17,017 nucleotides of DNA from a virus (lineage: Duplodnaviria > Heunggongvirae > Uroviricota > Caudoviricetes), in IMG/VR virus record IMGVR_UViG_2850802633_000008; one strand, 5' to 3'. A program made the translations under genes and the position numbers. Shown in pieces: positions 1-17,017 of this stretch. The notes under the pieces were generated by a model. The model was not told where the DNA came from, searched no databases, and worked only from the letters and a program-made list of their open reading frames with translations. Position 1 is the stretch's first letter, and each line of letters opens with the position of its first letter.

Positions 1-327
1 TCATTTTTTCCAGAGGCGGTCGAACTCCGCCTTCGCAAAATAAGCGGAAGCCTGGCGAAGGATATCGTTACTGCGGCGCAGTTCACGATTTTCACGCTCC
101 AGCTCTTTCAGACGCTGACGTTCAGCGGTGGTGAGCCCTCCATCACCGCCCCCGGTATCCCGCTCATGCTGGCGAACCCAGACACGCAGAGTCTCCGGCG
201 TACAGCCAATCTTTGGGGCAATGGAACAAATTGTCGCCCATTGTGAGTCATATTCGCCCTGACTTTCCAGAACCATACGGACTGCCCGTTGACGGACTTC
301 GGGGGAAAAACGAGTATTTTTAGTCAT
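1..327 (-). CDS. IS3-family transposase OrfA (IS629-like), 108 aa
   Basis: ORF track 1..327 (-), [23 protein letters not shown]...[34 protein letters not shown]. It has the helix-turn-helix plus leucine-zipper layout typical of IS3-family OrfA and matches my recollection of IS629 OrfA. ATG at 327..325, TGA at 3..1. Confidence 0.85.
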
Positions 328-381
328 CCTGTTTACCTCTTTCTCAGGAAGTTTAGTCTCCAGGATTCCCGGGGCGGTTCA
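1..381 (-). mobile_element. IS3-family insertion sequence (IS629/IS1203-like), left-end portion; element continues beyond the window start
   Basis: Complete orfA at 1-327 (-). The minus-strand sequence from 381 downward begins TGAACCGCCCCGGGAATCC..., a TG-initiated terminal repeat of the IS3-family type about 54 bp upstream of the orfA ATG. The exact terminus at 381 is placed from recalled IS629 end sequence, not an alignment. Confidence 0.7.
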
Positions 382-465
382 CGTTGGGTTTTTCTGCTCA
401 TTATTAGCTCCTTCTGATGCCATTCTATTTCAGGAAGGAGTGTCCGTTAAACTCAGGCTACCTCA
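382..465 (-). mobile_element. Remnant left end of a second IS3-family element (IS600-like), interrupted by the IS629-like insertion
   Basis: Minus strand reads TGAGGTAGCCTGAGTTTAACGGACACTCC...CAGAAGGAGCTAATA ATG AGC AGA AAA ACC CAA CG, which then runs straight into the IS629-like terminus. That is a strong RBS plus ATG (401..399) and seven codons (MSRKTQR), matching my recollection of the IS600 OrfA N-terminus. The outer boundary near 465 is inferred, not verified. Confidence 0.4.
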
Positions 466-2183
466 ACTCTCTTTTCAATAGGGTCAAGGTTTTTCATCCC
501 GCCAAGATCTTCTGCCACCTGTTTGAGCATTGACCTTGTTGATGGCGCATCAATTTTTGCACCTGCAGGCATCGCCTTTTCAACATTGCGATAAAGCTGG
601 TCGCTTCGTTTCATCAGCGCAGACATTCTTCCATTGACCGTATCAATAAACTTGTCGCTCATACCAAGAGCATCTTTTGCACCGGAAACGCGATCAATTA
701 TCTCACCCGCGCCCTGTGCTAGCTGCCTGATTGCTTCATTTTCCTGCACCTGTAGAGCAGAACCCGCACGGGACTTGATTGCTTGCTCAACTGCCTTGTA
801 TTGCTCGTTCCCGGAAAAGTGTGAAGGGAGTAATGAATCAACATTAAGCCTTTCAGCAGACTCCAGAACTTCAGCCTGAGGATTGATATCTAGTTCATCA
901 AGCGATGAAGCGAGATTTGGCCTTTTTTGTGCTGCTACTGTGCGAACGACTTCCTCTGGGTTCTTCGTCGCAGGCGTCATTGGTACACCTTGTGCTACTC
1001 TTGCCTCTGCGGCATGAACCGCAGGATTTGTTGCTGCAGCGGCATCACCGGAGAATGGTGATGTTTCTGTTGGCGCAGTGGTCGCTCTCTGTGCAGATGT
1101 TTTATTGCCACTAATTATATTTGATGCACCACGAACACCACGGGTAACGCCATTTATCAGGCCATGCGTAGCAATGCTAAGTCCGGCATTAATAGCGGCA
1201 TTTTCGGCAAAATCACCCCGTTGATTCGCCGCGTCAGCGAGAGAACCAATGACCATGTTTCCAGCTACACCTGCTCCAGGAACAAGATAACCGCCTATTG
1301 ACTCTCCAGCTTGCGCGTAGGGGTCTGTCGGTCTGTCTACTGGACGATAAACATCATCCAATACTTTTGGCCCCCCAAGCCCCTGACTGATTGCATTAAT
1401 CAGACTTGCGCCACCCTGCAATACGTCAAATGGTATGTTTACCAGACCACGACCAGCCTGTTCTGCAATTTGCCCTGCACTTTGACCACCAGTGAGCCAA
1501 TCGCCAGCTTGTTGCATCAATGATGGTTCTTCCCGTGTTGGTGCATTATTGGCCTGATTAACTGTTTGTTGCTGAACAGGTTTCGGTGCGACAGAACTTA
1601 CGGGTTGAGGTGGCTGCTGACTGGCTGCCTGCTGCTCAATCTGAGCAAATGGATTATTTGGGTCTGACTGCACACCTGATGCCGATACTTGTTCGGATGA
1701 CTGTACTTCCAGTTGTGCAAACGGGTTGTTAGGGGCTTGCTGAGGATGTACCTTTGCAGAGGTGGCGCGCTGTTCGACTGTTGAGTCTGTCACCGGGTCA
1801 CCAGCCCATTGAGCAAAGCGATCATCAACGTAACCGCGGCCTTCAGGTCCTGGCGTATATTCACCACGCTTTGCCTTCATAACGTTGCCGGGACCGTCGT
1901 GATAAGCCTGAAGAGCGTCACGCCAGTTACCAAACTGCTGGTACATCTTTGCCAGATAGCGCGCGCCAGCGTCAGCCTGATATTCGGGGTTTTGCATTTG
2001 CTCATCGGTATAACCCATATCACGCCATGTCCTAGGCATGACCTGAGTCAATCCTACAGCCCCGGCGGAGCTTACTGCGGCAGGGTTGTAAGAAGACTCC
2101 TTGGCACCCAGTGCAGTCATCAACCCTTCTGGCACACCGTAACGTGCGCCAGCCTGCTCTAACAAATCACGGTAATTAACCAT
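453..2183 (-). CDS. Internal virion (ejection) protein with N-terminal lytic transglycosylase (SLT) domain; occupies the P22 gene-16 position
   Basis: ORF track 453..2183 (-), 576 aa, ATG at 2183 directly after the TAA of the upstream gene. The N-terminus carries the family-1 lytic transglycosylase motifs: ...[25 protein letters not shown]... (E-S catalytic motif, GLxQ(V)MP) and ...[11 protein letters not shown]... (AYNAG-like). The rest is Q/A/P-rich low complexity, typical of ejection proteins. The last four codons and stop may lie inside the IS600-like end. Confidence 0.75.
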
Positions 2184-12079: not shown

Positions 12080-13120
12080 TTAAGTTCTCCGTGCGATGGG
12101 CCTGATTGGGGCTGGTATCTTTTTCTCTTTTGGTTTTTTGATGTCGCGCATCATTTTTGCGAAGCGGCGCATCATGTATGCATAGCGAACGGCGGATAGC
12201 ACGTCGTCGTTAAGCTTGACGATTTTCCCGTTTTCATCACGGTGATAGAGGCGGAACTCCTCAAAGAATGGCTCACAGGTATTGAATACTTTGAAGCGAC
12301 CATCGAGCATCATGTCGCGCAATTCAGTGATGCCTGGCTCAACAGCGTTACCGCCATCAGGCCATGTCGCATGCTCCTGCAACATCATAAATCCAGCGTC
12401 TGCATACTGCCCTTTGAGCTGCTCACCGCCGCCCTTCTCGTGCTGGTTTCCATCATGAGGCCATGCGGTTGGCACTTTATGCGCCCATGATTTAACGGCT
12501 CCCCACGCCTGAACGGCTGTTTTTTCTTTCGCCTTCCACACGCGTGAAACGTAGATTGTGTCTGCCTCCTTATCCCACCAAAGCTGAACTTGCGCCTGTG
12601 GGTGATCCCATCCGAAATCCATCCCGCCAATTACGTAGAAGTGATCAGGACACTCGAACGGCTGACACTTAATCGTCTCTTCCGGTATCTGGAAGATTCG
12701 ACCACTACCCATCGTAGGAATACCGCGAGCACGCGCCTCTCTCTCATGCTCGGGATATGATGCGATGATTTGCTCTTTCTGCTCGTCGGTATAGTGCTCA
12801 GCGTCATAGATGGTCATGTTGACCACTTTCTGCGACTTGCTGGGGTTCTTCAGGAACTTGGTAACAACGTCAGACATCCCCATCAGCGGGGTAAACGTCA
12901 GAATTGAGAATTGCCCGTATTTGTTGGTACGGGTAAGACCTTCGCCATAAATGCTGTATGGTGGCTCTTCGTCAAACCACACGCCGTGGATTGTGTCACC
13001 CTGCCAGCGAGCACGGCCTTGCGAGTATGGCTTGAAGTAGCAGATTGAAATGCCATCTTCAACGCCATCAGCCGTGTGATGCTTAACCAGAAGGTGATCA
13101 ACAAGGTTCGGAAAGAAAGG
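12080..13120 (-). pseudogene. Large terminase subunit, 5'-truncated by the IS911 insertion (C-terminal about 346 codons retained)
   Basis: ORF track 12080..12982 (-) starts at an internal GTG. The frame is open upstream with no start codon back to the IS911 end at 13121 and on into the IS to a TGA at 13166-13168. The retained part is the C-terminal nuclease-type region (...VIGGMDFGWDHP...LNDDVLSAVRYAYMMRR...). No Walker-A ATPase N-terminus and no small-terminase gene are present. The stop abuts the portal ATG. Confidence 0.8.
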
Positions 13121-13192
13121 TGAAGTGGCACACTGAATTTGGCCACCTGAACAGAGGTGATATGCTCACCTCAGAACAACACAGGTGCTCCA

Positions 13193-14361
<1,169 letters not shown>

Positions 14362-14369
14362 CCACTTCA

Positions 14370-14762
14370 ATATGGACCATCTGTCGTGGTGCCACAATGG
14401 TGGATGGTAAGCCCGTCATACCGGGAATGAAGCTGTCGAAGGAAAAATGCGACCAGGTTAACGCTATTGAACGTGATAAGGCGCTGGCATGGGTGGAGCG
14501 CAATATTAAAGTACCACTGACCGAACCACAGAAAGCGGGTATAGCGTCATTTTGTCCCTATAACATTGGCCCAGGTAAGTGTTTCCCGTCGACGTTTTAT
14601 AAGCGGCTGAATGCCGGTGATCGTAAGGGCGCATGCGAGGCGATTCGCTGGTGGATAAAAGATGGTGGGCGCGATTGCCGCATACGTTCAAATAACTGCT
14701 ATGGACAGGTTATTCGTCGTGACCAGGAAAGCGCATTAGCCTGTTGGGGGATAGATCAGTGA
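14370..14762 (+). pseudogene. Phage lysozyme (endolysin, lambdoid R21/T4-lysozyme-like family), 5'-truncated by IS911
   Basis: ORF track 14355..14762 (+) starts at a TTG inside the IS911 right repeat. The native sequence begins at 14370 (IWTICRGATMVDGKPVIPGMKLSKEKCDQVNAIERDKALAWVERNIKVPLTEPQKAGIASFCPYNIGPGKCFPSTFYKRLNAGDRKGACEAIRWWIKDGGRDCRIRSNNCYGQVIRRDQESALACWGIDQ). The N-terminal roughly 45-50 residues, including the expected catalytic Glu, are missing. Confidence 0.8.
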
Positions 14763-15732: not shown

Positions 15733-15788
15733 CCATTACAAAGCCTATCTACGGGTGGGTTTGATAATGGCTTATACTGGATTTGCCC

Positions 15789-16694
15789 CTATATTTCCAG
15801 ACATCTGTTATCACTTAACCCATTACAAGCCCGCTGCCGCAGATATTCCCGTGGCGAGCGATAACCCAGCGCACTATGCGGATGCCATTCGTTATAATGC
15901 TCGAACGCCTCTGCAAGGTTCTTTGCTGCCGTTAACCCGTCTGGTTTGGGCATGATACTGATGTAGTCACGCTTTATCGTTTTCACGAAGCTCTCTGCTA
16001 TTCCGTTACTCTCCGGACTCCGCACCGCCGTGTTCTTCGGTTCAAGTCCCAACATCCGGGCGAACTGGCGTGTTTCATTAGCCCGGTAGCATGAACCATT
16101 ATCCGTCAGCTACTCCACTGGAGACGACGGAAGATCGTTGCCGAAGCGGCGTTCCACCGCTCCCAGCATGACATCCTGTACTGTTTCACTGTTGAAGCCG
16201 CCGGTAGTCACCGCCCAGTGCAGTGCCTCACGATCACAGCAATCCAGCGCGAACGTGACACGCAGTCTCTCTCCGTTATCACAGCAGAACTCGAACCCGT
16301 CAGAGCACCATCGCTGATTGCTTTCTTTCACGGCCACTCTGCCTGTATGTGCCCGTTTCGATGGCGGTACAGCAGGTTTTCGCTCAAGCAACAGCGCATT
16401 CTGGCGCATGAGCCGGTAAACACGTTTGGCATTGATCGCAGGCATACCATCAAGTTCTGCCTGTCTGCGAAGCAGCGCCCATACCCGACGATAACCATAC
16501 GTGGGCAGCTCTCCGATAACATGGTGTATACGGAGAAGCACATCCGTATCATCAGTGTGACGACTGCGGCGGCCATCCATCCAGTCATCGGTTCGTCTGA
16601 GAATGACGTGCAACTGCGCACGCGACACCCGGAGACAACGGCTGACTAAGCTTACTCCCCATCCCCGGGCAATAAGGGCGCGTGCGCTATCCAC
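15789..16694 (-). pseudogene. insD: IS2 transposase InsD (OrfB) interrupted by an in-frame TAG at 16110-16112
   Basis: ORF track 16110..16694 (-, ...[11 protein letters not shown] then stop) and 15789..16055 (-, [11 protein letters not shown]...) are in one frame. Translating the gap gives [33 protein letters not shown]. The recalled IS2 InsD reads [14 protein letters not shown], so this is TGG->TAG. Confidence 0.85.
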
Positions 16695-17017
16695 TTTTTT
16701 GCCCGTCCATATTCAACGGCTTCTTTGAGGAGTTCATTTTCCATCGTTTTCTTGCCGAGCAGGCGCTGGAGTTCTTTAATCTGCTTCATGGCGGCAGCAA
16801 GTTCAGAGGCAGGAACAACCTGTTCTCCGGCGGCCACAGCAGTAAGACTTCCTTCCTGGTATTGCTTACGCCAGAGAAATAACTGGCTGGCTGCTACACC
16901 ATGTTGCCGGGCAACGAGGGAGACCGTCATCCCCGGTTCAAAGCTCTGCTGAACAATTGCGATCTTTTCCTGTGTGGTACGCCGTCTGCGTTTCTCCGGC
17001 CCTAAGACATCAATCAT
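16652..17017 (-). CDS. insC: IS2 InsC (OrfA), 121 aa
   Basis: ORF track 16652..17017 (-), [61 protein letters not shown]...[41 protein letters not shown]. Matches the recalled IS2 InsC. Confidence 0.92.
16694..16700 (-). promoter_or_regulatory. IS2 programmed -1 frameshift heptamer A-AAA-AAG in the insC/insD overlap
   Basis: Plus strand CTTTTTT at 16694-16700 is AAAAAAG on the minus strand, in register with the insC frame (A-AAA-AAG). The insD frame is the -1 frame relative to insC. Confidence 0.7.

Follow-up and report, generated by a model that had tools for sequence, protein, structure and literature searches.

The window analyzed here, a 17,017-nt stretch of a caudoviral record (IMG/VR IMGVR_UViG_2850802633_000008), begins inside an insertion sequence (IS), and within its first 470 bases the end of one IS, a short stub of a second, and the 3′ end of a phage ejection-protein gene meet. 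The locus therefore raises the question of whether its left edge is a nest of one IS within another that truncated a phage gene, and of where the rest of that nest lies. Taken together, the evidence makes it very probable that successive IS events scarred this edge of a P22/Sf101-like prophage, itself defective and resident in a Shigella flexneri-type chromosome, and that the nest was later split by recombination of IS629.

An IS600 Stub Cut by IS629

Read on the minus strand from 465 (TGAGGTAGCCTGAGTTTAACGGACAC...) to 381, the window matches the IS600 reference in 85 of 85 bases (E=6e-40); this reference is the commonest full-length copy among those gathered from IMG/VR, 1264 bp long, with left and right repeats that form an imperfect inverted pair. 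Base 381 is common to IS600 and IS629, and because IS629 begins at 381 the stub itself is 465-382, identical (100%) to IS600 bases 1-84. It comprises, all on the minus strand, the left inverted repeat (from 465, starting TGAGGTAGCC), a promoter-like site known by sequence match (TTAACG-17-TAGAAT, 450-422), a ribosome-binding site (AGGAG, 412-408), and the orfA start codon (ATG, 401-399) with codons MSRKTQR (401-381), the seventh of which is broken after its second base by IS629. The initial annotation had read the same ribosome-binding site, start, and seven codons, and had proposed an IS629-like element inserted into codon 7 of an IS600-like orfA; both points are borne out, as 382-465 is the left end of IS600 cut by the left end of IS629. 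The IS-end comparison that it had called for over 382-470 gave, besides the 85-base match, hits to 434 Escherichia and Shigella plasmids, and the matching DNA of pCP301 is annotated “IS600 ORF1.”

The outer boundary, initially placed near 465, was fixed at 465/466 in two independent ways. Among exact occurrences of the 29-bp IS600 end in IMG/VR, 114 different upstream flanks turn random exactly one base before TGAGG, and collinearity with intact prophages (Escherichia coli F1005 and phage Sf101) ends at 466. The stub thus has the features of an IS terminal repeat, beginning TGAGGT... with a sharp edge against unrelated flanks. A complete IS600 of ∼1264 bp carries an OrfA helix-turn-helix and an OrfB rve domain; here 84 of 1264 bp are present, with no transposase and no right end. 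Copies with distinct flanks and a right end at 1263–1285 bp numbered 59, among which 43 were 1264 bp long and 24 had a 3-bp duplication. No such duplication brackets the copy in question, its left flank being AGT here and AAG at its displaced right end, as in a simple insertion into an integrase gene described below. The stub is a fragment rather than a functional copy, and its remainder lies at another locus.

IS629 accounts for the outermost 381 bp (1..381, minus strand), with the window edge inside the element; this segment shares 99.7% identity with bases 1-381 of the complete 1306-bp copy in the corresponding S. flexneri locus L012. The left repeat begins with TGAACCGCCCCGGG, the sequence from 381 being TGAACCGCCCCGGGAATCC..., and 381 is the same base at which two pCP301 copies annotated IS629 begin. 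IS629 orfA (327-1, minus strand, stop at 3-1) encodes 108 aa with a Pfam HTH_Tnp_1 domain, identical at 107 of 108 residues to “IS629 ORF1” of pCP301. We take IS629 to be the same element as IS1203 of E. coli O157. An intact IS629, with orfA/orfB, spans 1310 bp; outside the window the element measures 1306 bp in L012 and in two copies near adrA (L148 and L149), and all three share a 4-bp deletion in orfB (IS629 positions 579-582; L012 about 12381), given which this copy is probably not autonomous. The L012 and adrA-side copies differ from each other at ten positions, nine of them within the first 430 bp.

IS629 duplicated the triplet ACG (382..384, minus strand; IS600 bases 82-84); the second ACG is present in other loci, at the displaced junction. 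Nests of IS629 in IS600 recur: in loci that had been chosen for containing IS600, IS629 lies within that element at positions 395, 479, and 793/805 (L120, L122, and L123), and it adjoins IS600 ORF2 on pCP301 (L147, 42.9-44.7 kb). The transposition hot spot suggested initially gains slight weight from these four or more other positions, which come from a sample selected for IS600.

The 3′ End of the Ejection-Protein Gene

The ejection-protein gene (453..2183, minus strand) has 576 codons, and its native part covers 466-2183, or residues 1-573. It is of the gp16 type: a lytic transglycosylase (SLT) domain was detected, PF26808 (Phage_P22_gp16) was among the precomputed Pfam hits for the 576-aa protein, P22 gene 16 is 73.5% identical over residues 221-371, and the gene is placed after gp7-like and gp20-like genes. 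By tblastn, residues 1-573 matched gp13 of phage Sf101 and a relative in phage APC_JM3.2. The closest relatives are, however, 911 aa long, as is Sf101 gp13, and the BLASTP alignment to the latter (564/573 identities, 98%) ends at residue 573, so that 573 of 911 residues are retained and 338 codons are absent. At the DNA level, collinearity between the window and the F1005 prophage spans 8999 to 466 and is interrupted by one gap. The breakpoint between phage and IS600 DNA falls at 465..466, where intact relatives read GAAAAGAGAGT followed by CTTTCGGG and the window reads GAAAAGAGAGT followed by TGAGGTAGCC.

Beyond this breakpoint, the gene consists of IS600 sequence, namely E574, V575, and A576 (456-464), the TGA stop (455-453), and the silent third base of V573. 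The initial annotation had credited the IS with the stop and the last four codons; the stop and three of these codons do come from it, and the fourth owes it only a third base. Its view that the gene is 3′-truncated holds as well, but not its treatment of the 576-aa product as a protein unit, since the open reading frame reads as a 573-residue fragment of a 911-aa protein, to which IS600 supplies an end and a stop. The truncated gene is presumably a non-functional pseudogene.

One might instead suppose that a short ejection-protein variant naturally terminates at the 453-455 stop and that the likeness to IS600 is coincidental, and in RefSeq the F1005 gene is indeed given this same endpoint. 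That gene (L008 6818-9552, NZ_OY754353.1) is labeled “incomplete; missing C-terminus” and stops at the very base at which the Shigella gene joins IS600, with ∼1 kb left unannotated; its DNA, however, is an uninterrupted 911-aa ORF that runs 338 in-frame codons further. The truncated Shigella protein may have served as the template for this annotation. Among 44 IMG/VR loci encoding the C-terminal third, the breakpoint is covered in 43, and all 43 continue past it; Sf101 and F1005 likewise extend beyond ...IEKRV, and no IMG/VR relative that reaches the breakpoint ends in ...KRVEVA. Together with the 85-base IS600 match and its E value, the F1005 read-through and the 43 relatives refute a natural short variant, the probability of which we consider vanishingly small. 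Because of the same IS600 match and the homologs that read on, neither of the findings that the initial annotation had named as contrary to it, a lack of any IS end at 382-470 and a shared ...KRVEVA terminus, was obtained.

The Displaced Half of the Nest

Many NCBI assemblies encode exactly this 576-aa protein. Among those read were five large chromosomal records, including CP020753 (S. flexneri 1c Y394); loci with the exact ORF differ from the window at 2–5 positions over about 12 kb. Four of the five records (L009, L011, L012, and L013) continue from IS629 into psiF, phoA, iraP, and ddlA. The apparently different gene order in one scaffold, L010 (KN150717), was discounted because of runs of N inside its IS copies. 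In L012, which holds the window junction of Y394, the 3′ end of psiF comes immediately after the 1306-bp IS629 (right end, then ATCAGGTATCAGG), and none of an IS600 remainder, a tailspike gene, or an attachment site was found after IS629 at this psiF locus. The tailspike gene, initially suspected to be missing, indeed does not follow at this locus in four complete chromosomes. The junction of the ejection gene with IS600 was absent from complete E. coli RefSeq genomes.

From the window alone, the default reading would be a simple intact nest, with the missing portions of IS629 and then of IS600 just past the window start and the other phage genes behind them, and such nests do occur at other IS600 positions and on pCP301 (at 42.9-44.7 kb). 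Against this stand the position of psiF directly after IS629 in the four records above, the mismatch of the two IS629 flanks (ACG versus ATC), and the finding that the absent half adjoins adrA. An intact nest is thus very improbable in general and is refuted, by psiF, for the genomes examined. The initial expectation that the remainder of IS600 would be met beyond the window start consequently fails: psiF is there, and the nest has been split by recombination between IS629 copies.

A pattern search of IMG/VR for an IS629 right end joined to IS600 base 85 onward recovered two loci (L137 and L138), with the junction GGTTCA-ACG-TTACTC. The window reads ...CCCAACG-TGAACC on its side, and L148 and L149 share the junction of L137 and L138; since an IS629 right end, ACG, and IS600 base 85 are found joined in this way, IS629 truly inserted into a whole IS600 and duplicated bases 82-84. 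The other half of the nest, running from the IS629 right end through ACG to IS600 bases 85-1264, is located in a cryptic integrase gene near adrA (also called yaiC). In L137 and L138, the right end of IS600 abuts the 3′ part of this thrW-type integrase; next come att, gtrA, gtrB, a gtr-specific gene, and a tailspike gene. Another locus, L059, contains a simple, complete IS600 in the same integrase with AAG on both flanks, and phage SfII contains the intact site (CCCGGAAGAGAGTAAATC).

The chimeric reading frame formed at the displaced junction is visible in L137 (13031-13375, minus strand) as a 114-aa ORF that runs from the end of IS629 orfB through the right repeat into IS600 orfA from codon 7. 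A protein search with the chimeric IS629-IS600 ORF returned a partial protein alone (P0008, “transposase, partial [Shigella flexneri 2a]”); from this match it follows that the displaced junction exists in S. flexneri, in contigs of ≤737 bp that carry no context.

The adrA side of the exchange was not found in IMG/VR by its own IS629 junction and was later met, via the other junction, in two complete genomes (L148 and L149, one of them S. flexneri SFBU1023). Here, GCACTATC, from the adrA side of the adrA-psiF spacer, is followed by the left end of IS629 (TGAACC), and the right end of IS629 by ACG, IS600 base 85 onward, and the 3′ part of the integrase. The intact E. coli spacer reads GTTAGCACT-ATC-AGGTATCAGG (GCACT-ATC-AGGTATCAGG).

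Recombination Between IS629 Copies

Although insertion of a single IS629 should leave the same 3-bp duplication on both flanks, the copy in L012 has ACG as its left flank and ATC as its right, and the partner of each triplet is at the adrA-side copy: IS600-ACG/IS629/ATC-psiF on one side, and adrA-ATC/IS629/ACG-IS600 on the other. Because the duplications have been swapped reciprocally, with the partners of the mismatched triplets at the adrA-side copy, two IS629 copies must have recombined. In a sample of 12 distinct complete IS629 copies, 3 retained matching duplications.

The arrangement shows the following events. The left end of IS600 became joined to codon 573 of the 911-codon gene, its repeat read in frame as E-V-A-stop. 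IS629 entered that IS600 at bases 82-84, within orfA codon 7, duplicating ACG, and a second IS629 entered the adrA-psiF spacer, duplicating ATC. Homologous recombination between the two copies exchanged their flanks, yielding as one product the gene fragment, IS600(1-84), IS629, psiF, and phoA, which is the arrangement of the window, and as the other adrA, IS629, IS600(85-1264), the 3′ part of the cryptic integrase, att, and gtrA.

This exchange was probably an inversion. The window-type and adrA-type junctions come from different records, and the case for inversion draws on a published finding that Y394 retains adrA: the gtrI cryptic phage of that strain is situated in the proA-adrA locus with adrA kept, in a genome with 345 IS elements (PMC5596473). 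The S. flexneri proA/thrW-yaiC backbone carries int, IS600, and IS629, which its published map lists as conserved host genes (PMC3306764), and an IS629-mediated inversion around the SHI-O region has been described in strain Sf8401 (PMC1550401). Together these three observations favor inversion, above all because adrA is retained in Y394. If the exchange had instead been a deletion or translocation between directly repeated IS629 copies, the genome with the window junction would lack the adrA-IS629-IS600 junction. The occurrence of the two junction types in different records would fit this, as would the small share of IS629 copies that keep matching duplications (3 of 12), which suggests that rearrangements of all kinds are common. 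Yet the window junction (L012) occurs in Y394, where adrA is reportedly still next to the gtrI cryptic phage, and an inversion would leave exactly this reciprocal ACG/ATC pattern; we therefore consider deletion or translocation unlikely.

Joining of IS600 to the Ejection Gene

The IS600 copy concerned would be the one in the cryptic thrW-type integrase, which would have arrived as a simple insertion flanked by AAG, as seen in L059. Its left flank would later have been replaced by the ejection gene, through recombination with a second IS600 copy or through intramolecular transposition. The right end of IS600 is in the integrase, and given the orientations of the elements this step would require an inversion and not a deletion. 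An IS600 right end joined to the C-terminal part of the gene was not found in IMG/VR or in GTDB representative genomes, and IS600 adjoins the C-terminal third at 0 of the 44 IMG/VR loci that encode it.

The 8-mer AAGAGAGT is found flush outside IS600 at both of its ends, next to the left end in the ejection gene (window 466-473) and, within the integrase gene, beside the right end (about 12134-12141 on the minus strand of L137), and it is native to both genes. Insertion followed by IS629 recombination offers no account of this identity. The gene/IS600 junction might thus have arisen via the shared 8-mer, for example by homology-assisted target capture by an IS600 intermediate, and not by ordinary insertion and recombination. 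The flush position at both ends speaks for such a route, with a chance expectation of ∼1.5e-5 if it is treated as a single pre-specified comparison, as does the pCP301 copy with ACGAGAGT flush against the left end of IS600. Conversely, both genes possess the 8-mer natively, 114 left and 77 right IS600 flanks showed no enrichment of a GAGAG-type target, and the pCP301 case was picked by BLAST ranking; its GAGAGT flank, considered as a sign of target preference, is best explained by a ranking that favors matches to the query flank. To our knowledge, no homology-guided mechanism of this kind is known in the IS3 family, and we regard the 8-mer route as decidedly unlikely relative to ordinary insertion and recombination.

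The stub also forms, with IS629, a predicted chimeric ORF of 22 codons (333..401, minus strand), which begins with the ATG of IS600 orfA and ends 5 nt short of the ATG of IS629 orfA. It is improbable that either of two conceivable effects operates here: that 8-mer homology between donor flank and target guides the landing of IS600, or that the promoter-like site, ribosome-binding site, and 22-codon ORF of the stub boost the IS629 transposase by read-in and translational coupling.

Other Lesions of the Prophage

Several independent lesions show the prophage to be dead. In the gp20-like ejection gene, codon 366 is a nonsense codon (stop 2420-2418, minus strand); the gene has 443 codons in Sf101, and the frame runs for 77 more codons to 2184. 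The P22-type portal gene has a nonsense codon at position 157 (stop 11611-11609, minus strand), which divides it into two ORFs, one of 156 and one of 558 aa. The large-terminase gene (12080-12982, minus strand) is without its 5′ part and adjoins an IS911 copy (about 13121-14372, plus strand), which separates it from a lysozyme fragment and lysis genes on the plus strand; given the opposite orientations of the lysis and terminase genes, a further IS-associated rearrangement took place here. An IS2 copy (about 15757-17017, minus strand) reaches the right window edge. In a sister genome, CP026768 (L143), remnants of type VI secretion genes, dnaQ, and rnhA were observed beyond IS2.

Significance and Comparison With Known Systems

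The locus is a case of ordinary IS decay, with one addition, the nest split by recombination of IS629 with IS629. Both elements, which belong to the IS3 family, and the IS-driven decay and inversion of Shigella prophages are already well documented, and nothing here is biologically new. The value lies partly in annotation: the 576-aa “ejection protein” is best treated as the product of a putative IS-truncated pseudogene, and its truncated form seems to have been carried into the annotation of intact genes, as with the full 911-codon gene of F1005 that is flagged at the breakpoint. The locus also serves as a clear example of how swapped 3-bp duplications reveal the recombination of two IS629 copies, and these duplications tie the prophage fragment on the psiF side to the int-IS600-IS629-adrA segment beside the S. 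flexneri serotype-conversion locus.

Compared with Sf101 gp13 and P22 gp16, the ejection protein is alike in its N-terminal SLT domain, its gp16-like region, and the position of its gene after gp7-like and gp20-like genes; it differs from Sf101 gp13 in lacking residues 574-911 and in ending with three IS-encoded residues. The IS600 stub is identical to bases 1-84 of the 1264-bp element and differs by the absence of all else and by its mismatched AGT and AAG flanks. The left repeat and orfA of IS629 are essentially identical to those of the annotated element, and its insertion produced a 3-bp duplication, but the copy in the window is a recombinant whose two flanks come from different insertion sites. 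The partner junction, from prophage fragment through IS600 stub and IS629 to psiF, is not described in the two SHI-O studies (PMC3306764; PMC1550401). An IS629-mediated inversion near SHI-O, however, is already on record (PMC1550401), and the published SHI-O backbone has the same content as the displaced half, with the integrase fragment, IS600, IS629, and adrA/yaiC side by side (PMC3306764).
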